The notes: generated from the sequence alone by a model not told the origin. 64,000 nt of DNA from Bacilli bacterium (GCA_017934595.1 JAGBJG010000009.1:839-64838), one strand, 5' to 3'. Shown: positions 1-28,064, counted from the first letter of the stretch. Translations and numbers: made by a program.

Positions 1-40
1 CAGTGGGCAAGGGATAAATACCCCTTTGAACCCCATTTAA

Positions 41-87
41 GCGACAAAACTACAAACTAATCGTAAGTAGTAATGTCGCCTTTTTTA
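41..87 (+). terminator. Putative intrinsic terminator
   Basis: Stem GCGACA (41-46) pairs with TGTCGC (74-79) and is followed by a T6 run. It lies at the end of an open frame that enters from the left edge and stops at 58-60. Confidence 0.4.
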
Positions 88-179
88 TTGCAACTTACGT
101 TTTATAAAAAAGAAAGAATACTATCACCACTTTCATTTACTATCGTAAACAAAACGTGCCACGTATTCTTTATATAAAA

Positions 180-212
180 ATAACCTTAATACGATTAATG
201 TACTAAGGTTAT
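180..212 (-). terminator. Putative terminator for the repressor gene
   Basis: ATAACCTTA (180-188) pairs with TAAGGTTAT (204-212), flanked by an A-run and a T-run. The stop codon of 209..757 lies in the right arm. Confidence 0.35.
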
Positions 213-757
213 TTTCTTTTTGGAAATAATGCACTATCAAATGATGGATATTTTGATTTATCAAATTTTTCTAAATTTGGTCTAATCATAGGAATTATTT
301 CCTTTAATCTATCTAATATTTCATCATTAGATAATTCTCTTTTTTCTATCTTTGCTAATTCTAATTTATCAATTAAATCAGCAATACATCCTTTAACAGC
401 AAAATCTACTTTTCTTCTTTCTTCCAGATTATCTAAAGCATAAAAGTAAAATTGTTCATAACTTTGTATTTGTTTTTGATAATCTGCAGTAGATCTTTTA
501 ACAGATAAATCTTTACCCCAGTTTATATCTATATCATCATAACCAGCAAGTTTCATTAAATCTACCATACTTAAATCAAGTGTTTCTGCGATTCCTTTTA
601 AGTATAAAATATTTGGTTTTAATCTTTTACCAGCTTCAATACGAGATACTTCAGCACAATCCATATTTGATCTACGAGCAAGTTCTCTTTGTGAAATACC
701 TAGTTTTTCTCTTGTTTCACTTACTAATTTTCCTAATTCAGTAGTCTGTTTTTTCAT
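209..757 (-). CDS. XRE-family (HTH_3) phage-type repressor with a C-terminal helical extension
   Basis: The N-terminus LGISQRELARRSNMDCAEVSRIEAGKRLKPN is a typical Cro/C1 HTH. An RBS GAGGTGG precedes the ATG, and the gene is divergent from the next gene. Confidence 0.8.
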   Translation of the reverse strand: MKKQTTELGKLVSETREKLGISQRELARRSNMDCAEVSRIEAGKRLKPNILYLKGIAETLDLSMVDLMKLAGYDDIDINWGKDLSVKRSTADYQKQIQSYEQFYFYALDNLEERRKVDFAVKGCIADLIDKLELAKIEKRELSNDEILDRLKEIIPMIRPNLEKFDKSKYPSFDSALFPKRK

Positions 758-780
758 CTAATACCACCTCAACTGAAATA

Positions 781-888
781 AGTATAACATATAGTGATGT
801 AAAAATCAATACATTTTTGTAATTATGGTGTTGACAAACTCATTTTATGATGATATACTCAATATGAATTGATGTAAAACTCATCAAT
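781..888. promoter_or_regulatory. Back-to-back divergent sigma-A promoters with repeated operator-like motifs (genetic switch)
   Basis: Plus-strand promoter: TTGACA (831-836), 17 nt spacer, TATACT (854-859). Minus-strand promoter: TTGATT (810-805), 17 nt spacer, TATACT (786-781). The motif TGATGTAAAA[A/C]TCA occurs at 795-808 and 870-883, and the second copy lies within the inverted repeat ATTGATG-N7-CATCAAT (868-888). Confidence 0.6.
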
Positions 889-910
889 AAGAAAGGAGGA
901 ACAGAGATGA

Positions 911-1174
911 ATGAGGGTAAAGCACCTAGACATTTCAAACCATAAGATATGGAGAGATAAAAACATCAAACCCGAAGCAAAAGAAATATATGCTTATCTA
1001 TTTGCAGAGGGATTTGAAAGAACTATCTCACATATAAGTATTGGAAGAATACAAAGGGAGCTGAAAAGTATAACCAATATCGGATTTAGAAATAATCTAA
1101 AGATATTAGAAAAAAACAAATATCTAGTTTATAAAGAATACGATACAGGATTATATGAATATCACATTTACTAG
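911..1174 (+). CDS. Small hypothetical protein, probably a winged-HTH DNA-binding protein
   Basis: RBS AAAGGAGGA at 892-900. The segment ISIGRIQRELKSITNIGFRNNLKILEKNKYLV looks like a wHTH. A competing ATG at 907 gives only 12 codons. Confidence 0.5.
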   Translation: MRVKHLDISNHKIWRDKNIKPEAKEIYAYLFAEGFERTISHISIGRIQRELKSITNIGFRNNLKILEKNKYLVYKEYDTGLYEYHIY

Positions 1175-1387
1175 AACGATAGAATCACTAGTAAATATAG
1201 GTACAGTAAATGTTCGGAGATTTATGTTAGTACCTTTTCTATAAGATATATAGAATAAATCAAAATAATATCTTTAGGGGAAGATATAAAAAATCCCCTT
1301 TAGGATATTATTGCTCAAAATTGGGAATGGAAAAGCCCATATTTATTAGATAGGAGAACTATTATTATATTAGATTGTGAATTTATC

Positions 1388-1879
1388 ATGACTCCAAGAA
1401 TATTATTTAATGATAGGAATTTATCTAAAACAGATTGTAGTGTTTTAGGTCTTATCATTTCACTTACCTTAAAAAATGGATATTGTTATGCGAGTAATGA
1501 ATATTTAGCAGACTATGTAAAAGTATCAAAAAGAACAATTAGTGATTCATTGTCTAAAATAAAACGATTAAAATATATCATAGTAAAGTATGAAAATAAT
1601 AATCGTAGAATATATCTTAATACTGAAAAGATACCAACAAAAGTTGCGAACCAAGTAGCAAAAAATTGTGATGATATGGTAGCAGAAACTTGCGACCATA
1701 ATATAAATAATAAATATAAAAATGAATATAAAAAAATAAATAAATTTAAACGAGAGGGAATTGTACCTTATTGGATGGAACATCCTGAAGTGTGCAAATC
1801 AGATCCAATGACCGAAGAAGAATCTATAGAATTTGATAAACAGTTAGATGAAATACGAAATACAATAGATAAATTATAG
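1388..1879 (+). CDS. Hypothetical wHTH protein, possibly a replication-initiation/DnaD-like N-terminal domain
   Basis: GYCYASNEYLADYVKVSKRTISDSLSKIKRLKYI resembles the HTH of small phage or plasmid replication-organiser proteins. The C-terminus is Lys/Asn-rich. Confidence 0.45.
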   Translation: MTPRILFNDRNLSKTDCSVLGLIISLTLKNGYCYASNEYLADYVKVSKRTISDSLSKIKRLKYIIVKYENNNRRIYLNTEKIPTKVANQVAKNCDDMVAETCDHNINNKYKNEYKKINKFKREGIVPYWMEHPEVCKSDPMTEEESIEFDKQLDEIRNTIDKL

Positions 1880-1948
1880 AATGAAAGGAGAAGATGTCTA
1901 TGAAAGGAGTATTTAATTTATAATTAAAAAGATAGGGGGTAATAGAAA

Positions 1949-2092
1949 ATGGAGGTAGTATATAATGTAAAATATAAATTTAAGAACAATGAAAATAAAA
2001 CTAATGAAGAATTAAAAGAGTTATTTAATAGAAAATTGTTAAATATCATTATAAAGCTAGAAAATCAAAAATTAGGATTAAATAATTCGTAA
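1949..2092 (+). CDS. Unannotated 47-aa ORF (MEVVYNVKYKFKNNENKTNEELKELFNRKLLNIIIKLENQKLGLNNS)
   Basis: Translated by hand. An RBS AGGGGG lies about 9 nt upstream of the ATG, directly upstream of the recombinase gene. The ORF is below the size cut-off of the ORF track. Confidence 0.35.
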   Translation: MEVVYNVKYKFKNNENKTNEELKELFNRKLLNIIIKLENQKLGLNNS

Positions 2093-2159
2093 TAATGATA
2101 TATAATATACTTGTATTTAAAATTATTCGTAGTTGTTCCAATGTATTGGAGGAATGGCT

Positions 2160-3758
2160 ATGATAGAAAAGGTAGGTGTATATTGTAGATTATCTGATGA
2201 AGATAGAGATAAAATAAATAAAACTGATGATAGTGATAGTATAATAAATCAAAGAAGTATGTGTTTAAAATATGCTAGTCAAAATGGTTGGGATATTGTA
2301 GATATATATTCTGATGATGATTTCTCTGGAGCAGGAACTTATAGACCAGATTTTGAAAGACTTATAAATGATTGTAAAAATGGTAAGATTAATTTAGTCT
2401 TATGTAAATCACAATCTAGATTTTCAAGAGATATGGAAGTTATTGAAAGATACTTACATAATAAATTTATTGAATGGGGAGTTAGATTTGTAAGTATTAT
2501 TGATAATGCTGATACAAGTATTGAATCTAACAAGAAATCAAGACAAATAAATGGACTTATTAATGAATGGTATTTAGACGACTTATCTCAAAATATTAGA
2601 AAGTCTTTAAAGAATAAAAGAGAAGATGGTTTATTTATGGGTAGCTTTGCCTCATATGGTTATGATAGAGATGAAGATGGACATAAGTTAGTTGTAGATC
2701 CAGTAGCTGCAGAAGTAGTTAAAAAGATATTTAAAATGTATGCAGATGGATATGGTTATCATAGAATATGTGAATATCTAAACAATAATAATATTCCACC
2801 TAGATCTGTTTATAAAAAGCAAAAAGGTAGCAAATTTGTATGTTGTAATTGCGATTTAAAGACAGTTAGATGGAATCCTGATACAATTGCTCAAATGTTA
2901 AAAAATGAAGTTTATATTGGCAATTTAGTCCAAGGAAAAACTACTTATGTAAGTTATAAAAATCATAAACCTATGAAAGTACCTAAAAAAGATTGGATTA
3001 GAATTGAGAATGCACATGAACCAATTATAGATATGGAAACATGGAATAAAGTACAATCAATATTAGGAACACATTACAAGGTTACTAAAACAGGACAAAT
3101 AAACTATTTTACTAGAAAAGTATATTGTAGTTGCTGTGATAAAGCATTTATGAGAAATGTTTATAGTGTTAAAAGTGAAAAAACTGGTAAAAGAGCATAT
3201 TTACAATGTAAGGGTAATAAAAAGTTTCATATATGTCCTAACAATAAAGCAATTAGAATGGATAGTTTAGAGGAAATATTATTAAATGCTATTAATGATT
3301 TATTAGATAATTACTATGATAAGAATAATTTAAAAGAACTCTATGAAAACAGACAAGAACAAGATACAGATAATAATGATTCAATAAAAGCACTAATAAA
3401 AGAAAAAGAAGATTTGAATAAAAAAATAAGTAATAATAAAACTTATTATAGAAATCTTTTTGAGGAAAAAGTTAAAGGAGTTATTTCCGAAGATATGTTT
3501 CAGATGATGTCTAAAGATTATTTCAATGAAATAGAAAATATGATGAAAAGAATTGAAATAATAGATAAACAAATTGATGAGTTAAAAGTAGAAAAGAAAG
3601 AAAAGAAAAATGCTGATGACATATTAAAGAAATATAAGCATATAAAAGAACTTAATAAAATTGTATTAGATGAGTTTATTGATAAAGTATATATTGGAGA
3701 ATATGATAAAGTAAATAAAACAAGAGATATTGAAATAGAATGGAATTTTGAATTTTAG
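2160..3758 (+). CDS. Large serine recombinase (SpoIVCA/SprA/phiC31-type)
   Basis: It has a resolvase catalytic domain (VGVYCRLSDEDRD... LVLCKSQSRFSRD), a recombinase domain, a Cys-rich zinc ribbon (CSCCDKAF...LQCKGNKKFHICPNN) and a C-terminal coiled coil. The start was moved to the ATG at 2160, 7 nt after GGAGG. Confidence 0.9.
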   Translation: MIEKVGVYCRLSDEDRDKINKTDDSDSIINQRSMCLKYASQNGWDIVDIYSDDDFSGAGTYRPDFERLINDCKNGKINLVLCKSQSRFSRDMEVIERYLHNKFIEWGVRFVSIIDNADTSIESNKKSRQINGLINEWYLDDLSQNIRKSLKNKREDGLFMGSFASYGYDRDEDGHKLVVDPVAAEVVKKIFKMYADGYGYHRICEYLNNNNIPPRSVYKKQKGSKFVCCNCDLKTVRWNPDTIAQMLKNEVYIGNLVQGKTTYVSYKNHKPMKVPKKDWIRIENAHEPIIDMETWNKVQSILGTHYKVTKTGQINYFTRKVYCSCCDKAFMRNVYSVKSEKTGKRAYLQCKGNKKFHICPNNKAIRMDSLEEILLNAINDLLDNYYDKNNLKELYENRQEQDTDNNDSIKALIKEKEDLNKKISNNKTYYRNLFEEKVKGVISEDMFQMMSKDYFNEIENMMKRIEIIDKQIDELKVEKKEKKNADDILKKYKHIKELNKIVLDEFIDKVYIGEYDKVNKTRDIEIEWNFEF

Positions 3759-3769
3759 AAAGATAATAA

Positions 3770-4333
3770 ATTTGGACTTTTCCAATACCCCGACATGGTG
3801 GAGTAGATCCAGGAGCTTATTATGGAGGAATTAAAGAAGAAGATATAAATTTAGATATCGCTTTTAAATTAAGGGAAGAATTAGAAAAAGTTGGAGCAAC
3901 TGTATATTTGACAAGAGATGGTGACTACGATTTATCTAATAATGCCGTTGATAGAAAGAAAAATGACTTATATAAAAGAGTAAAATTAATTAACAATTCA
4001 GGATGTGATATGTATTTGTCCTTACATTTAAACGCGACTAAATCTAAATCTTGGCATGGAGCTCAAGTGTTTTATGATGATATAAATGATTCAAATATCA
4101 AACTAGCCGCGATATTACAAAAGCAATTGAAAGCTGATTTGAAGACTAATAGGAAGTACAAAGAAGTAACTAATGGGTATATATATCGTAGGGTAAAAAT
4201 ACCTGGCGTATTAGTCGAAATGGGATTTTTAAGTAATCCATATGAACGAGAAAAACTGAAAACGGCGAATTACCAATATTTAATAGCGCGCTCGCTTGTT
4301 AAGGGAATTAAAATTTATTTCGAAAGATATTGA
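3770..4333 (+). pseudogene. cwlD: 3' portion of a split N-acetylmuramoyl-L-alanine amidase gene (CwlD-type, Amidase_3); the 5' part is absent from this window
   Basis: The frame is open from 3770 and reads ...PRHGGVDPGAYYGGIKEEDINLDIAFKLREELEKVGATVYLTRDGDYDL...LSLHLNA...VEMGFLSN. There is no ATG/GTG/TTG in frame before the TTG at 3908, and no signal peptide or RBS. Confidence 0.75.
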
Positions 4334-20603: not shown

Positions 20604-21659
20604 ATGAAGAAACTACTTTTAATATTAGCTTTATCTTTATCCTTTATTAATGTGAAAGCATCTAGTATGATTGCATATGATATGGATACAAAGCAAATAC
20701 TATATCAAGATAATATACATGAAATAAGACCAGTTGCTTCTATATCTAAGATAATGACTGCTATAGTAGCTTGTGAATCAGGTAAATTAGATGATATGGT
20801 TACTATAGGTGATGAAATAAATAAATCATATGGATCAGGTATATACATAAGGATAGGTGAGAAATTAACTTTAAGAGATTTAGTATATGGATTAATGCTT
20901 AGAAGCGGCAATGATGCAGCGTTTGCTATTGCAAAATATGTTGGTGGAGATATAGATACATTTGTAGATATGATGAATAATAAAGCTAAAGAATTAGGTA
21001 TGAATGACACTACTTATAATAATCCTAATGGATTAGATGATAAAGGTGGTAATTTATCTAGTACATATGATATGGCCTTACTTACTAGTTATGCTATGAA
21101 GAATGATGAGTATAAAAAAATTACTAAAACTAAAAAGTATACATTAAAAACTAATATGAATTATTATTCATGGATCAATAAGAACAAATTACTATTTAGT
21201 TATAAGTATACTACAGGTGGTAAAACTGGATTTACGAAGATAGCTAAAAGGACGTTAGTTACAACTGCATCCCATAATAATATGAATATCGTTATAGTTA
21301 CATTAAATGATGGTAATGATTTTAATAATCATAAGAACTTATATGAGAAATTATTTAATAAATATAAAGGATATAACATATTAAAAATAGGAGATGTATC
21401 AATATCTAATTTAAAAGATAAAAATAGATATTATGTTAAAGAAGGATTTAAATATGATTTAGATGAAATAGATAAGGATAATATTACTGTAAAATTTGAC
21501 ATAAATAGTATACAAAAAGATGACAATATTATAGGTAATGCCATAATTTATCTAAATAACAAAGAACTTTATAGAACTAATGTATATTTAGATGCAAACA
21601 AAAAGGTAACATTTTGGCAAAAAATACTGAATTTCTTTAAAGTAGGTAAAAATGATTAG
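20604..21659 (+). CDS. dacB: D-alanyl-D-alanine carboxypeptidase (S11), sporulation-type
   Basis: It has a signal peptide plus the SxxK (SISK), SGN (RSGND) and KTG (GGKTGFT) motifs. It is followed by spmA-spmB, as in Bacillus. Confidence 0.85.
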   Translation: MKKLLLILALSLSFINVKASSMIAYDMDTKQILYQDNIHEIRPVASISKIMTAIVACESGKLDDMVTIGDEINKSYGSGIYIRIGEKLTLRDLVYGLMLRSGNDAAFAIAKYVGGDIDTFVDMMNNKAKELGMNDTTYNNPNGLDDKGGNLSSTYDMALLTSYAMKNDEYKKITKTKKYTLKTNMNYYSWINKNKLLFSYKYTTGGKTGFTKIAKRTLVTTASHNNMNIVIVTLNDGNDFNNHKNLYEKLFNKYKGYNILKIGDVSISNLKDKNRYYVKEGFKYDLDEIDKDNITVKFDINSIQKDDNIIGNAIIYLNNKELYRTNVYLDANKKVTFWQKILNFFKVGKND

Positions 21660-22239
21660 TTTAATATTTGGTTTATTCATAATTATAGGAATAATATTTT
21701 CTATATTCAGTGGTAATATTGGTAATATGTCTAATGTTATAGTTAAAAGTGCATCTGATACTTTTAATATAATAACAGGATTATTTCCTTTAATGGCATT
21801 ATGGTTAGGTATTATGAATATTGCATCTAAATCAGGATTTTTAAAAAAGTTAACACACTTACTAAGACCATTATTAAATCTCTTATTTCCAGATGTACCT
21901 AAAGATAGTAAAGCATTAGAATACGTCTCATCTAATATTATAATGAATATGTTTGGTCTAGGTAACGCGGCTACACCTATGGGTATAAAAGCACTTAAGT
22001 CATTAAAAGAATTAAATAATAATTCAACTACTGCGTCTGATAGTATGATTACATTCCTAGTTTTAAATACTACAGGATTTACAATAATACCTACAACTAT
22101 TATTTCTTATAGATTAATGTATGGTAGTTCTAATCCGTCTGCTATTACACCTATATGTATTATTGCATCCTTATTAGGTTCAATTGTAGGTATATTAATT
22201 AATTTGATCATGAAGAAGGTGTTTAGATGGCATTCTTAG
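21652..22239 (+). CDS. spmA: Spore maturation protein A
   Basis: It is a nucleoside-recognition (Gate) domain membrane protein that overlaps the end of dacB. Confidence 0.85.
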   Translation: MISLIFGLFIIIGIIFSIFSGNIGNMSNVIVKSASDTFNIITGLFPLMALWLGIMNIASKSGFLKKLTHLLRPLLNLLFPDVPKDSKALEYVSSNIIMNMFGLGNAATPMGIKALKSLKELNNNSTTASDSMITFLVLNTTGFTIIPTTIISYRLMYGSSNPSAITPICIIASLLGSIVGILINLIMKKVFRWHS

Positions 22240-22721
22240 TAGTAATTATTATTTTATATGGATTATATAAGAAACTTAGTATATATGACGTCTTTGTAGA
22301 AGGCGCTAAAGAATCGTTTAGTATTATCTTAACTTTATTTCCTACACTACTTGGTATGGTATTATGTATTAATCTATTAGTAGGTAGTGGATTGTTTGAT
22401 TATTTATTTAATATCATAAAAATAAGTTTTATTCCCGTAGATATCATACCTTTAATGATTCTAAGACCAGTATCAGGTAGTTCCACTTTAGCTATATTAT
22501 CTAATATTTTAACTAAATTTGGGGCAGATAGTTATACAGGAGTACTTGCCTCTACAATGATGGGTTCTACTGATACAACTGTCTATTGTTTAGCTGTATA
22601 TTTTGGTGCTGTAGGAATTAAAAACGCTAGATATGCGTTAGCTAATGGTCTTTTAGCTGATATATGTGCCTTTATTATATCTATTTTCTTAGTAAAGTTA
22701 TTATATAATTGCTTTTTCTAA
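22227..22721 (+). CDS. spmB: Spore maturation protein B
   Basis: It has the second Gate-domain half (LRPVSGSSTLAIL...STDTTVY) and overlaps spmA. Confidence 0.85.
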   Translation: MAFLVVIIILYGLYKKLSIYDVFVEGAKESFSIILTLFPTLLGMVLCINLLVGSGLFDYLFNIIKISFIPVDIIPLMILRPVSGSSTLAILSNILTKFGADSYTGVLASTMMGSTDTTVYCLAVYFGAVGIKNARYALANGLLADICAFIISIFLVKLLYNCFF

Positions 22722-24578: not shown

Positions 24579-25619
24579 TTATCCCGTTTTTTTAATCTTT
24601 AAGTATATCATGATTATAATAATTAATATGATGGTACTAGATATAGGTATTAATACTTTCGTAATAGTATTATAAAGAGTACTATTTCTAAATATAATCA
24701 CGCATAATATGATATTTAAAATGACTAATATATAGTTTTTAATATTAGTTAATTTATTTATAAAATAAGTAATCAAACTTAATAAAATAAACATTTCAAA
24801 TACCCAATGTATGATAATAAAATTTTCTATTTTATCAATAAATCCAAATATACTTACCTCTTTCATAACTATATAAGCAGGATAATGATATTTCATAGCT
24901 AAATCTATTCCTAATGATCCAATAGTATATATAATAATTATTAAAAATAAGATAAACGCTAATGTCATCGCAATAATTAAACCAATATTCATATGCTTAT
25001 TATTAGATACATTATCTTTCGGAATGATAAGTAGGATAAACATATATATAATTTGAAATATTAATATATATACACTTCCTATTATAGGCCTATTAATTCC
25101 ATTAGTAAGAATAGGTAACATATTAATAAGTTCAATCTTATTATATTCACCAAATATCGCAATCATTATGAGAATTATATTTATATAAAATAGGAAATTA
25201 GAAACTCTAAATATAGAAGTAATATCTTTACTATTAATAAATATTATAAGCATACCTAATATTATCATTGTGTATATAATTGGTGTTTCAGATAGAAATT
25301 GAGATATTATAAAATTATTGATATTGTAAGATAAACATAATGACATACTAAATAAAGCTATAGAAAATAAGATAATGATTAATTTACTTCTTTTAAAAAG
25401 AACATTAATTTTATCTTTTAAATCTAAGTTTGACTTATAATCATTTATACGAATGAAGATTATTAAAAACGCGAAGCTTAATATATATCCTATAATGACT
25501 GATATTGATGAATCAATACTAGCCTTAATAAGTAAATTATATAATCCCATTCCAAGAAATGGCGCCATTATAATCATAAAGAAAGTCGATACATACTCTA
25601 ATAGATTTATTTTATGCAT
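24579..25619 (-). CDS. Spore germination protein, GerAB/GerKB family (APC-like permease subunit)
   Basis: It is a polytopic membrane protein and the third gene of an A-C-B germinant receptor operon. Confidence 0.8.
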   Translation of the reverse strand: MHKINLLEYVSTFFMIIMAPFLGMGLYNLLIKASIDSSISVIIGYILSFAFLIIFIRINDYKSNLDLKDKINVLFKRSKLIIILFSIALFSMSLCLSYNINNFIISQFLSETPIIYTMIILGMLIIFINSKDITSIFRVSNFLFYINIILIMIAIFGEYNKIELINMLPILTNGINRPIIGSVYILIFQIIYMFILLIIPKDNVSNNKHMNIGLIIAMTLAFILFLIIIIYTIGSLGIDLAMKYHYPAYIVMKEVSIFGFIDKIENFIIIHWVFEMFILLSLITYFINKLTNIKNYILVILNIILCVIIFRNSTLYNTITKVLIPISSTIILIIIIMIYLKIKKTG

Positions 25620-26688
25620 TTAATTCTTTAACCCCATTTCCTTTATATTTTAAAAGTATATCTATATTAATATCAAAATTTAGTTTTTTAAAATTAAAAT
25701 CTTTATAATTTTTAAAATCTTTTTTATACATTAAATCTTTAAATCCAAATATATCTGTATCGTATTTATCAATAACTTTTTGAATAAACTTAGATATACG
25801 AGATTTTAAATCTTCTTCAAATGTATCCTCTATTTCTTTTATTATCTCAGGATTAGTTAAATCTACTTTGCTATTGATTTCAGCTATATATCCTGATAAA
25901 TCTATTTTAATTTTAAAAGTATTATTTAAAACATTTATAGAAGTATTAGTATTATTAATTTCGATAGTTGTATATTCATTTTTATATAAACTAGTTAATA
26001 CAGTATCAGATACATTATTCATAATAAGACTATAATATAATGATTCGTGTTCATCTATATAACCAATTAATTTATCACCTTTAAATATAGCTGTATCATC
26101 AATAACTATTTCTTTATCATTTAATTTAACAGATGGTATAACCATTTCAATATTAGGATTGGCATATTTAGTCAATAATTTAGAGAAAGTAATAGGTGTA
26201 GTATTAGATAGGTAATCATCATTGACTTTTAATCTTTCTACCAATGATTTCGCGGTTATTTCATCTGTTGTTTCCAATACTTTTTTTATATCATCTTTTG
26301 ATATTAAAACATAAAATTGTTTTCGTGATTCAACATCTCTAAAGAATAAATCCATAATCGAAGCTATACCGTCTTTAGCTAATTCCTCATCAATTAAAAT
26401 CATATATAAGTGATTTGCGTATAATCTTTTAGGAGATTTTAAAATCGCGCGTCTTAATGCTTCTTGGATAGTTTTACCACTTGATTCGTATAAAATTGTT
26501 TCGATTTTATTTTCTTCATTAGAAGAAGTTTCAGTTTTTAATACTTCAATTACTAAGTTATAATTATCACCATCTTTAGATATTCCAACAGCAGTAGTAA
26601 TTCCTAAATCATTTAGTTCACGATAGTTATAACATCCAGTAATTAGTGTGATAAATAAACTAATTATTAATATTTTTATATATTTCAT
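25612..26688 (-). CDS. Spore germination lipoprotein, Ger(x)C family
   Basis: It has the lipobox LITGC followed by YNYRELNDLGI, typical of GerAC/GerKC. Confidence 0.85.
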   Translation of the reverse strand: MKYIKILIISLFITLITGCYNYRELNDLGITTAVGISKDGDNYNLVIEVLKTETSSNEENKIETILYESSGKTIQEALRRAILKSPKRLYANHLYMILIDEELAKDGIASIMDLFFRDVESRKQFYVLISKDDIKKVLETTDEITAKSLVERLKVNDDYLSNTTPITFSKLLTKYANPNIEMVIPSVKLNDKEIVIDDTAIFKGDKLIGYIDEHESLYYSLIMNNVSDTVLTSLYKNEYTTIEINNTNTSINVLNNTFKIKIDLSGYIAEINSKVDLTNPEIIKEIEDTFEEDLKSRISKFIQKVIDKYDTDIFGFKDLMYKKDFKNYKDFNFKKLNFDINIDILLKYKGNGVKELNA

Positions 26689-28064
26689 TATTGCCTCCTT
26701 GGATTAATTCTTATGATACTATCTTTTAATTTAGTAAAATTAGTAGGTACAAAAGGAGTTAGATAAGGCTTACCAAATGAGTTAGTTGATATCATATTAA
26801 TGATAAAATAGATAAATGCGAATACTACACCTATAATACCTAAAGAAGACGCGCCTATCATAAATAAAATTCTATACCATCTAAGACCATTAAATATTTC
26901 ATATTCATTAAAAGGAAGTGATGCAATCGCGGTTAAAGCAATTATAATTATCATGATAGGAGAAACTATACCAGCTTTGGAAGCAGCTTCACCAAGTATT
27001 AAAGCTCCTACTATAGATAGTGAACTACCTGCAAATCCAGATGACCTAATATCACTTTCATGTAATAATTCAAAACATATCATCATCATAAATGCTTCAA
27101 AGAAAGCTGGAAAAGGTACAGTAGATCTCTGCATCGCGAAATTTATTAAAAATTCTGTTGGTAACATCTCTTGATTATATGTGATTAACGCAATATAAAT
27201 AGCTGGTGTGAATAAGGCTATATAAAAAGATAAATATCTAAGTATTCTAGTTAGACTAGTGTTTATAGGTTTACCTGAATAATCTTCACTTGTTTTGAAA
27301 AAATCATTTAATACTTCAGGTAAGATTAAAAGATATGGGTCATTATCTACTAAGATAACTATTTTTCCTCTTAATAATGACCTACATACTCTATCTGGTC
27401 TTTCCGTACTCATAATAGTGGGCATCGGATTTATATTTGATTCACCAATGATGTTTTTTAATGTACCACTATTTATTACACCATCAATATTGGTATTTTT
27501 AAGTTTATCATATATTTTATTTACTAATGATATATCAGCTTTACCATTTATATATACGATATTAATGATAGTATTTGTATATTTACCTATATTAACTTCT
27601 TTAATCCATAAATTATTACTTTTAATTCGTTTTTTTATGAGACCTATATTAGTTTGATAATCTTCTGTAAAAGCATCTTTACTTCCTCTAATGGCTATTT
27701 CACTAGTAGGTATACCAATACTTCTTTTATTACTACTCTTAGTTTCTAAAGCTAATAGTTTTTTCTCTTTTTCAATTAAGATAATAGTAAATCCACTATG
27801 TAAGTATGTACACATATCATTATAATTATCTATTTCAATTACTTTAAAGTTATAAATATCCTCTTTTATTTTAGACGCTAAATTAATGGAAGTTATCTTA
27901 TTTAATCTATCTAAACTCTTAATAATAAAATCACTTATACTACTACCACTAGTAAGTGAATCACTATAAATAATCCATACTATTTTACCTTTAATTTTTT
28001 TCTTTCTATAGACTATATCTTTTAAGTTATTAGTCTCTATTTGTAGACGTTTGATATAATTCAT
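26688..28064 (-). CDS. Spore germination protein, GerAA/GerKA family
   Basis: A soluble N-terminal domain is followed by a C-terminal membrane domain with RILRYLSFYIALFTPAIYIAL. Confidence 0.9.
   Translation of the reverse strand: MNYIKRLQIETNNLKDIVYRKKKIKGKIVWIIYSDSLTSGSSISDFIIKSLDRLNKITSINLASKIKEDIYNFKVIEIDNYNDMCTYLHSGFTIILIEKEKKLLALETKSSNKRSIGIPTSEIAIRGSKDAFTEDYQTNIGLIKKRIKSNNLWIKEVNIGKYTNTIINIVYINGKADISLVNKIYDKLKNTNIDGVINSGTLKNIIGESNINPMPTIMSTERPDRVCRSLLRGKIVILVDNDPYLLILPEVLNDFFKTSEDYSGKPINTSLTRILRYLSFYIALFTPAIYIALITYNQEMLPTEFLINFAMQRSTVPFPAFFEAFMMMICFELLHESDIRSSGFAGSSLSIVGALILGEAASKAGIVSPIMIIIIALTAIASLPFNEYEIFNGLRWYRILFMIGASSLGIIGVVFAFIYFIINMISTNSFGKPYLTPFVPTNFTKLKDSIIRINPRRQ

Follow-up and report, generated by a model that had tools for sequence, protein, structure and literature searches.

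Why does the gene of a large serine recombinase end a few nucleotides before a spore amidase gene that has lost its beginning? The question is raised by the first 4,333 nucleotides of a 64,000-nucleotide stretch of DNA from Bacilli bacterium (GCA_017934595.1 JAGBJG010000009.1:839-64838), the whole of which is called the window here, and in which the germination amidase gene cwlD lacks its 5' part. An initial annotation proposed that an element interrupts cwlD in the manner of skin in sigK and SPbeta in spsM, and that the gene may be rebuilt by excision in the sporulating mother cell. Comparison with related contigs and genomes leaves us highly confident that the predicted insertion lies in cwlD, at the His codon of its GHGG motif, and that it is precisely reversible.

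The two halves of cwlD

The features that meet at the junction are these:
2160..3758, + strand: large serine recombinase, 532 amino acids (aa), with Resolvase, Recombinase, Zn_ribbon_recom and DUF4368 domains; reads toward the junction
3768..3793, + strand: element-side arm of attR, aaatttggacttttccaataccccga, constant in close element relatives whatever the host gene
3794..3795, + strand: CA crossover dinucleotide, the first two bases of the His codon in G-H-G-G
3794..4333, + strand: 3' part of cwlD, 179 codons plus stop, the first residue being His38 of the reconstituted 216-aa protein

The open reading frame (ORF) of 141 aa that begins at a TTG (3908..4333, + strand) had been taken for the C-terminal piece of an Amidase_3/CwlD-type enzyme, and coordinates and profile matches agree with this. 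Upstream of the TTG the same frame stays open back to 3770 and reads IWTFPIPRHGGVDPGAYYGG..., a translation that confirms the N-terminal HGG block described there. In a profile search, residues 8-181 of the 187-aa conceptual product correspond to Pfam Amidase_3 positions 6-173/174 (E 9e-45), and the product matches the NCBIfam model TIGR02883 spore_cwlD over positions 7-189 of 189 with 196.7 bits. The fragment in the window is thus complete except for the membrane/signal segment at the N terminus and the first six positions of the profile. The recombinase gene, whose domains and orientation are as first described, is separated from the open amidase frame by 11 nt, and at least six contigs from independent assemblies share this junction.

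The missing 5' fragment is not inside the window. The other end of the element was reached by means of its repressor sequence, which led to L001, a ruminant gut metagenome scaffold of 667 kb that is near-identical to the window over an overlap of 10.7 kb and extends 9.8 kb further upstream. There, 10,341 bp upstream of the window junction, a 42-codon ORF reads MKYKIFMLSIFVISLVIFGTVKADNSLYGKCIYLDPGHGG, then IG and a stop; it encodes a hydrophobic leader and the beginning of the amidase domain. The 5' fragment predicted at the far end of the element is therefore in place, and the two pieces, joined in silico at the shared CATGG, give an intact Amidase_3 ORF in frame, with 651 nt and a 216-aa product. 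The joined protein consists of an N-terminal hydrophobic segment, MKYKIFMLSIFVISLVIFG..., and a single Amidase_3 domain. It covers TIGR02883 completely (positions 1-189 of 189) with 210.4 bits, slightly below the curated cut-off of 221.55, the next family scoring 75 bits. Its best match among solved structures is CwlD of Clostridioides difficile (7RAG_B, 118 bits; LytH, 80 bits).

Intact orthologues of 216-217 aa with 87-94% identity are common, and they occupy the same locus without a recombinase. Their neighbours are those of the split gene: a glycosyltransferase, a methyltransferase and an RluA-type pseudouridine synthase upstream, and a 467-aa protein, Abi_2 and pheS downstream. On one contig with such an empty site the neighbourhood runs on upstream as ecfA-ecfT-truA-rplM-rpsI, the gene order next to cwlD in Bacillus subtilis. 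By profile match, best solved structure and gene neighbourhood, we assign the split gene as cwlD. The joined product resembles CwlD of C. difficile and B. subtilis, the amidase of cortex muramic delta-lactam formation, in its short N-terminal membrane/signal segment, its one Amidase_3 domain and its length of about 216 aa, as well as in its position downstream of ecf-truA-rplM-rpsI, shared with B. subtilis; with a score under the curated threshold, its CwlD activity is predicted. The alternative that the TTG-initiated 141-aa protein is the normal form was rejected, since full-length 216-aa orthologues with 88-99% identity occupy the locus where the recombinase is missing.

A near-identical empty site also exists. 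P0121, a 216-aa protein from the cluster of the truncated protein, differs by two residues from the product of the in-silico join. Its contig (1167 bp) aligns without gaps over 1163 bp with the predicted excision product at 97.9% identity, and is identical to it across 80 bp around the junction. The exact in-silico product was not found in a collection of 15 billion proteins. Between the split allele and the nearest intact one, dN/dS is 0.06 (eight synonymous and two nonsynonymous differences), a value equal to that among intact alleles.

Attachment sites and the circular form

Sixteen loci have both element ends, with elements of 7.5-11.3 kb. In all 16 the sequence switches between element and host exactly at CA, and each of the 16 in-silico joins keeps the reading frame. 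Inverted matches about the CA number 16-20 out of 26 in the reconstructed attP arms, and in the window element the attR arm has 17/26 inverted symmetry with the arm at the other end. For this element the predicted attB is TTATCTAGATCCAGGTCATGGTGGAGTAGATCCAGGAGC and the predicted attP TTTTCCAATACCCCGACATGGAGGAATAGGATAAATCC. Recombination of attL with attR at CA would release the element as a circle and, in silico, restore the 216-codon cwlD exactly. When metagenome contigs were scanned with the attL/attP pattern, about 40 further attL junctions were found in 5' fragments of amidase genes. Att sites defined in this way, with a CA core and 16 attP/attB pairs in silico, may interest recombinase engineers.

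One contig, L103 (Ga0352976_1036818, 9,859 bp), has the end of a recombinase gene joined to a left element end through CATGG, with the joint at 2082, and its contig ends map to adjacent element positions, in circular permutation. It is probably an excised or free circular form of a sister element. The cargo genes of L103 differ from those of the window element.

One recombinase family and its amidase targets

One genome per bacterial species was scanned, which yielded 80 recombinase loci, nearly all of them in gut metagenome-assembled genomes labelled Bacilli, Tenericutes or Mollicutes; the 58 informative loci have recombinases at least 51% identical to that of the window. An Amidase_3 3' fragment lies downstream of the recombinase stop codon in 54 of the 58. 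The tblastn match begins 23-68 nt after this stop in most loci, and 260-1390 nt after it in loci with an additional small gene in between. Wherever the DNA itself was read, the fragment starts exactly at CAYGGNGGN, the H-G-G codons. The targets comprise 13 cwlD-like genes and 41 genes of a LysM-type amidase (among L012-L075), which lacks a signal peptide and has an Amidase_3 domain with 3-5 C-terminal LysM repeats. Across these 54 species-level genomes, none of the split amidase fragments contains a frameshift or stop.

Close relatives of the element are found in other hosts and in the other target. A sister element with a 535-aa recombinase and an identical repressor protein sits in a LysM amidase gene in samples of the same study (L003 4247-4340, and L004). 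Recombinases 98% identical to that of the window occupy LysM amidase genes in other species (L012, L013, L014 and L046), and L012 is a closed long-read chromosome that carries the same architecture. At an identity of 48-50%, 13 of 16 recombinase loci have no adjoining amidase, and these enzymes are set aside as a group of apparently different specificity. Within the family, the GHGG-coding DNA of Amidase_3 genes appears as the chromosomal attachment site. Irrespective of any developmental control, this would be a natural serine integrase homing to active-site motif codons common to paralogues.

Further breaks were observed in the same genes. On CAJLIR010000005.1 (L067 10001-14424, together with L040), cwlD and the LysM amidase gene lie about 2 kb apart and both are split at HGG, by two different recombinases of the family, 51% and 75% identical to that of the window. 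A second break in the LysM amidase gene follows NHINAGGG(E/D)G in L012 (11883-21596), L027, L028 and about 15 other loci; there the amidase match ends near residue 85, and the junction peptide is QSVTNKCITIKA, followed by a stop. The element at this NAGGG site encodes a methyltransferase of restriction-modification-like type and has a large serine recombinase of its own (526 aa, 31% identity to that of the window). Its right junction was not found in any of the fetched loci, the elements being longer than the flanks. A third break lies inside the first LysM repeat (YIVKSGD / RVFMGNNE... up to a stop) in L037 (12608-16027), L060 (12246-19729) and L025. It belongs to a family of 521-aa recombinases, 31-32% identical, whose genes end 11-15 nt before the rest of the target gene. 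In L037 and L060 the LysM amidase gene is in three pieces.

A Tn4451-like mobilizable element

The remaining features of the element are as follows:
1..3795, + strand: right-hand 3.8 kb of the 10,341-bp integrative mobilizable element, the size being the distance between the two core copies
209..757, - strand: cI-like repressor, HTH_3, 182 aa (domain search)
831..859, + strand: near-consensus sigma-A-type promoter TTGACA-17-TATACT with TG, 11/12 matches (consensus scan only)
911..1174, + strand: 87-aa ORF, no Pfam or NCBIfam match, conserved in the sister elements L003/L004
1388..1879, + strand: HTH_36 winged-helix protein, 163 aa (E 8e-9)
1949..2092, + strand: conserved 47-aa ORF directly upstream of the recombinase, no Pfam or NCBIfam match
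2073..2110 (approximate), + strand: conserved sigma-A-like recombinase promoter TTAAAT-17-TATAAT, hexamers read by eye
L001 15908-17182: Mob_Pre relaxase (domain search)

The left 6.5 kb of the element, on L001, hold the relaxase, helix-turn-helix (HTH) regulators, Acyl_transf_3, DUF6434 and the attL end. Between the core copies there are 14 genes in all: the Mob_Pre relaxase, several HTH regulators, the acyltransferase and small unknown ORFs. Domains of phage structural proteins, type IV secretion systems, conjugation pores or coupling proteins were not found among them. Behind the recombinase, the initial annotation had placed a repressor switch and two winged-helix proteins; the switch stands, and of the two proteins only the HTH_36 one has a family match. 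The promoter at 831..859 points away from the repressor gene and heads the row of the 87-aa ORF, the HTH_36 gene, the 47-aa ORF and the recombinase.

According to preprint 10.1101/2021.11.05.467528, DUF4368 marks the TndX/TnpX-like clade among the large serine recombinases. The window recombinase has this domain with 30.1 bits against a cut-off of 25, and three PDB matches, the TnpX catalytic domain among them; its best NCBIfam match is XisF, at 102 bits far under the cut-off of 375. From its domain and PDB matches, the enzyme is classed as a DUF4368-bearing recombinase of TnpX/TndX-like type. Between the window and L001 there are 40 mismatches, all within 2213..2588, the rest of the overlap being identical. 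This patch corresponds to 375 bp of the catalytic domain of the recombinase, and it suggests recombination between co-resident sister elements or strain mixing in the assembly.

No recognisable recombination directionality factor (RDF) was found for the recombinase. The 47-aa ORF occupies the same place in nearly all relatives with a recombinase 57-98% identical, and it is the only candidate for an accessory factor or RDF. The recombinase promoter overlaps the end of this ORF and the sequence just beyond it, in a block, gatATATAATATActtgTATTT, that is conserved in about 45 loci.

By its gene content, the element is classed as a Tn4451-like integrative mobilizable element, not as prophage-like, the closest plan being that of Tn4451/Tn4453. 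It shares with them a small size (about 6-10 kb), a MOBV (Mob_Pre) relaxase (TnpZ there), a single DUF4368-type recombinase (TnpX there), a 2-bp crossover, a circular intermediate and target DNA that resembles the circle joint. The crossover dinucleotide of Tn4451 is GA, whereas that of the window element is CA; moreover, its recombinase gene lies at the right end and reads outward, and no resistance gene is evident. Target choice also differs: Tn4451 has low target specificity (review PMC5704250), and the window family nearly always sits at one particular Amidase_3 codon, 54 of the 58 loci being at the HGG codons.

Host sporulation genes and the promoters of the targets

The window carries a GerA / Ger(x)C / spore-permease operon at 24579..28064 (Ger(x)C 242 bits against a cut-off of 163) and a dacB-spmA-spmB-like cluster at 20604..22721. 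On the basis of these genes the host is taken to be an endospore former. Deposited relatives, whose chromosomes measure about 1.3-1.5 Mb, bear the labels Tenericutes, Mollicutes or 'Candidatus Faecisoma'. At the sequence level the loci document endospore genes in poorly known gut Bacilli with small genomes, and they point to endospore formation in this group.

Of 31 distinct sequences upstream of the LysM amidase (examples are L096, L132, L098, L115 and L027), 30 have CATAnnnTA at a distance of 12-29 nt (mostly 23-29) from the start codon, and 20 have the full motif AC-N16/17-CATAnnnTA. Shuffled controls gave 0.64 for the short motif and 0.03 for the full one, and neither occurs in the 44 window genes. 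The full motif is the sigma-K consensus known from Bacillus. It fits a mother-cell lysis enzyme similar to CwlC, the label 'cwlC-like' denoting architecture and promoter alone. Among the NCBIfam models, none matched the LysM amidase as CwlC, the matches obtained being driven by LysM.

Upstream of cwlD, a terminator is followed by CATAAAATTA. The dacB-like gene has the similar CATATATTTA in front of it, and gerA is preceded by a different, sigma-G-like CATACTA. A sigma-E-type promoter with the -10 element CATAAAAT may be present upstream of cwlD, the match being weak. SigE controls cwlD in the mother cell of C. difficile, and B. subtilis transcribes the gene in both compartments (PMC6021603).

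Comparison with known intervening elements

Sporulation gene-intervening elements are known in sigK, spsM, spoVFB, spoVR and gerE (PMC4191935, PMC5595907), and gin demonstrates that they need not be prophage-like (PMC5595907). The elements and recombinases concerned are skin in sigK (SpoIVCA), SPbeta in spsM (SprA/SprB), vfbin in spoVFB, vrin in spoVR and gin in gerE. In the open-access corpus searched, which excludes most subscription journals, no paper was found that links cwlD, or any N-acetylmuramoyl-L-alanine amidase gene, to an intervening element; this agrees with the earlier remark that cwlD is not one of the classic host genes.

The likeness to skin and SPbeta drawn by the initial annotation holds for the architecture. 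As in skin, SPbeta and gin, a sporulation gene is split within its coding region with both fragments intact, a large serine recombinase gene lies at the element end beside the junction, excision restores the frame exactly (here in silico), and element-free strains exist. The likeness does not extend to the content. Unlike those elements, the one in cwlD has a relaxase and is thus mobilizable, its recombinase is of the DUF4368/TnpX-like type, a sporulation-controlled RDF or promoter was not found at the motif level, and in dozens of species members of a single family enter two paralogous genes at the same protein motif. Judged by its genes and junctions, the element is real, and it counts as new among sporulation gene-intervening elements; unusually, it is relaxase-bearing and mobile, it has a TnpX-like recombinase, and its family homes to one active-site motif in two paralogous sporulation genes.

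The heterocyst elements of cyanobacteria (nifD, fdxN/XisF, hupL) offer another parallel: recombinase-bearing elements interrupt genes needed only after terminal differentiation, and one target gene may have multiple breaks, here the LysM amidase gene. Phylum and differentiation programme are different, and the similarity is confined to the general level of large serine recombinases.

Rescue in the mother cell or plain insertion

Taken as a whole, the best explanation in our view is a reversible insertion with rescue through excision in the mother cell, to which we give an even chance. The need for both targets would be limited to sporulation and probably to the mother cell, which is terminally differentiating, so that the element would be harmless in growing cells. 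By excising in the mother cell, it would let the host keep its germination competence, as skin and SPbeta do for their hosts through sigK and spsM. This developmental reading derives from the choice of targets, from the many genomes in which split alleles recur and from the expected cost of losing cwlD. The more specific claim that excision during sporulation functionally rescues cwlD, and that the element works like skin, is tentative, its chances being a little under half; excision restricted to the mother cell and developmental control of the element are inferred.

Several points weigh against rescue. The motif search found no sigma-E/K-type motif upstream of the recombinase or of the 47-aa ORF, and none upstream of the HTH genes of the element, so that sporulation control of a recombinase or RDF, as in intervening elements, is not apparent at the motif level. 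Instead, the recombinase module has a conserved sigma-A-like promoter and sits behind a cI-like switch. The Tn4451 recombinase is reported to integrate and excise without an RDF (review PMC5704250); excision of the window element could therefore be constitutive and rare, not programmed. A shared DNA motif alone explains the choice of targets, and selection for mother-cell genes is not needed. Recombinases 98% identical in other species and in another target gene indicate that the elements are spreading now and that the insertions are recent, in which case intact fragments and a low dN/dS, calculated from ten differences, say little about continued selection. Lastly, the joined protein falls slightly short of the curated cwlD score, the sigma-E-type promoter of cwlD is a weak match, and the genome may have a second cwlD elsewhere.

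Plain insertional inactivation is a serious contender, even if we lean against it. A Tn4451-like element preferring GHGG-coding DNA would have landed in cwlD and would excise sporadically for its own transfer; carriers would form poorly germinating spores without CwlD, or persist vegetatively in the gut, as transient lineages. The relaxase, the cI-like switch, the sigma-A-like recombinase promoter and the DUF4368-type recombinase all suit such an element, as do the near-identical copies across species and target genes and the element-free strains in the same species-level group, and an excised circle is expected of any such element. Other findings speak against this explanation: a split sporulation amidase is found in 54 species-level genomes, with neither frameshift nor stop in any fragment, cwlD and the LysM amidase gene are both split on one contig, and at least six assemblies share the split cwlD allele. 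Mutants of cwlD have a germination defect, and in a spore-transmitted gut anaerobe this should be strongly counter-selected.

That the element is an immobile remnant and cwlD a dead pseudogene is very improbable. An intact copy of exactly this allele is indeed missing from the protein collection, but every gene of the element has an open frame, the recombinase is complete in length and domains, 98%-identical copies occur in other species and the family has an attP circle; moreover, both cwlD fragments are intact with a dN/dS of 0.06, and a near-identical empty site exists. A chimeric contig that fused a mobile element to cwlD is barely credible: the source is a metagenome and the 375-bp recombinase patch that differs between the window and L001 could reflect strain mixing, but the same attR junction recurs in several independent assemblies, with a matching attL at the expected distance and the same architecture in 54 other genomes, including the closed long-read chromosome L012.

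Should the excision prove developmental, germination competence would depend on a mobile element acting in the mother cell, and cwlD, together with a probably cwlC-like lysis amidase gene, would join the short list of genes rebuilt during sporulation. Ordinary mobilizable elements, and not only degraded prophages, could then become gene-intervening, which bears on the origin of such elements. A more far-reaching version, which we regard as unlikely, is that an uncultured lineage of gut Bacilli with small genomes keeps both cwlD and the sigma-K-driven cwlC-like amidase gene split, and that serial excisions in the mother cell reassemble both. At least three unrelated families of elements with large serine recombinases would be involved, each at its own codon block (GHGG, NAGGG and LysM KSGD). 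In heterocysts, nif and hup genes are interrupted several times over, and this would be the counterpart in firmicutes, with elements that are still mobile and relaxase-bearing, and sporulation would double as element release.

Genes downstream of the split amidase

Downstream of cwlD, between 4383 and 9682 of the window, are the genes of two large proteins of 467 and 877 aa without any family match. The length of the 877-aa protein differs by strain, its counterparts having 805 aa, or 504 and 291 aa in two parts. A gene similar to the abortive-infection gene Abi_2 follows these two.

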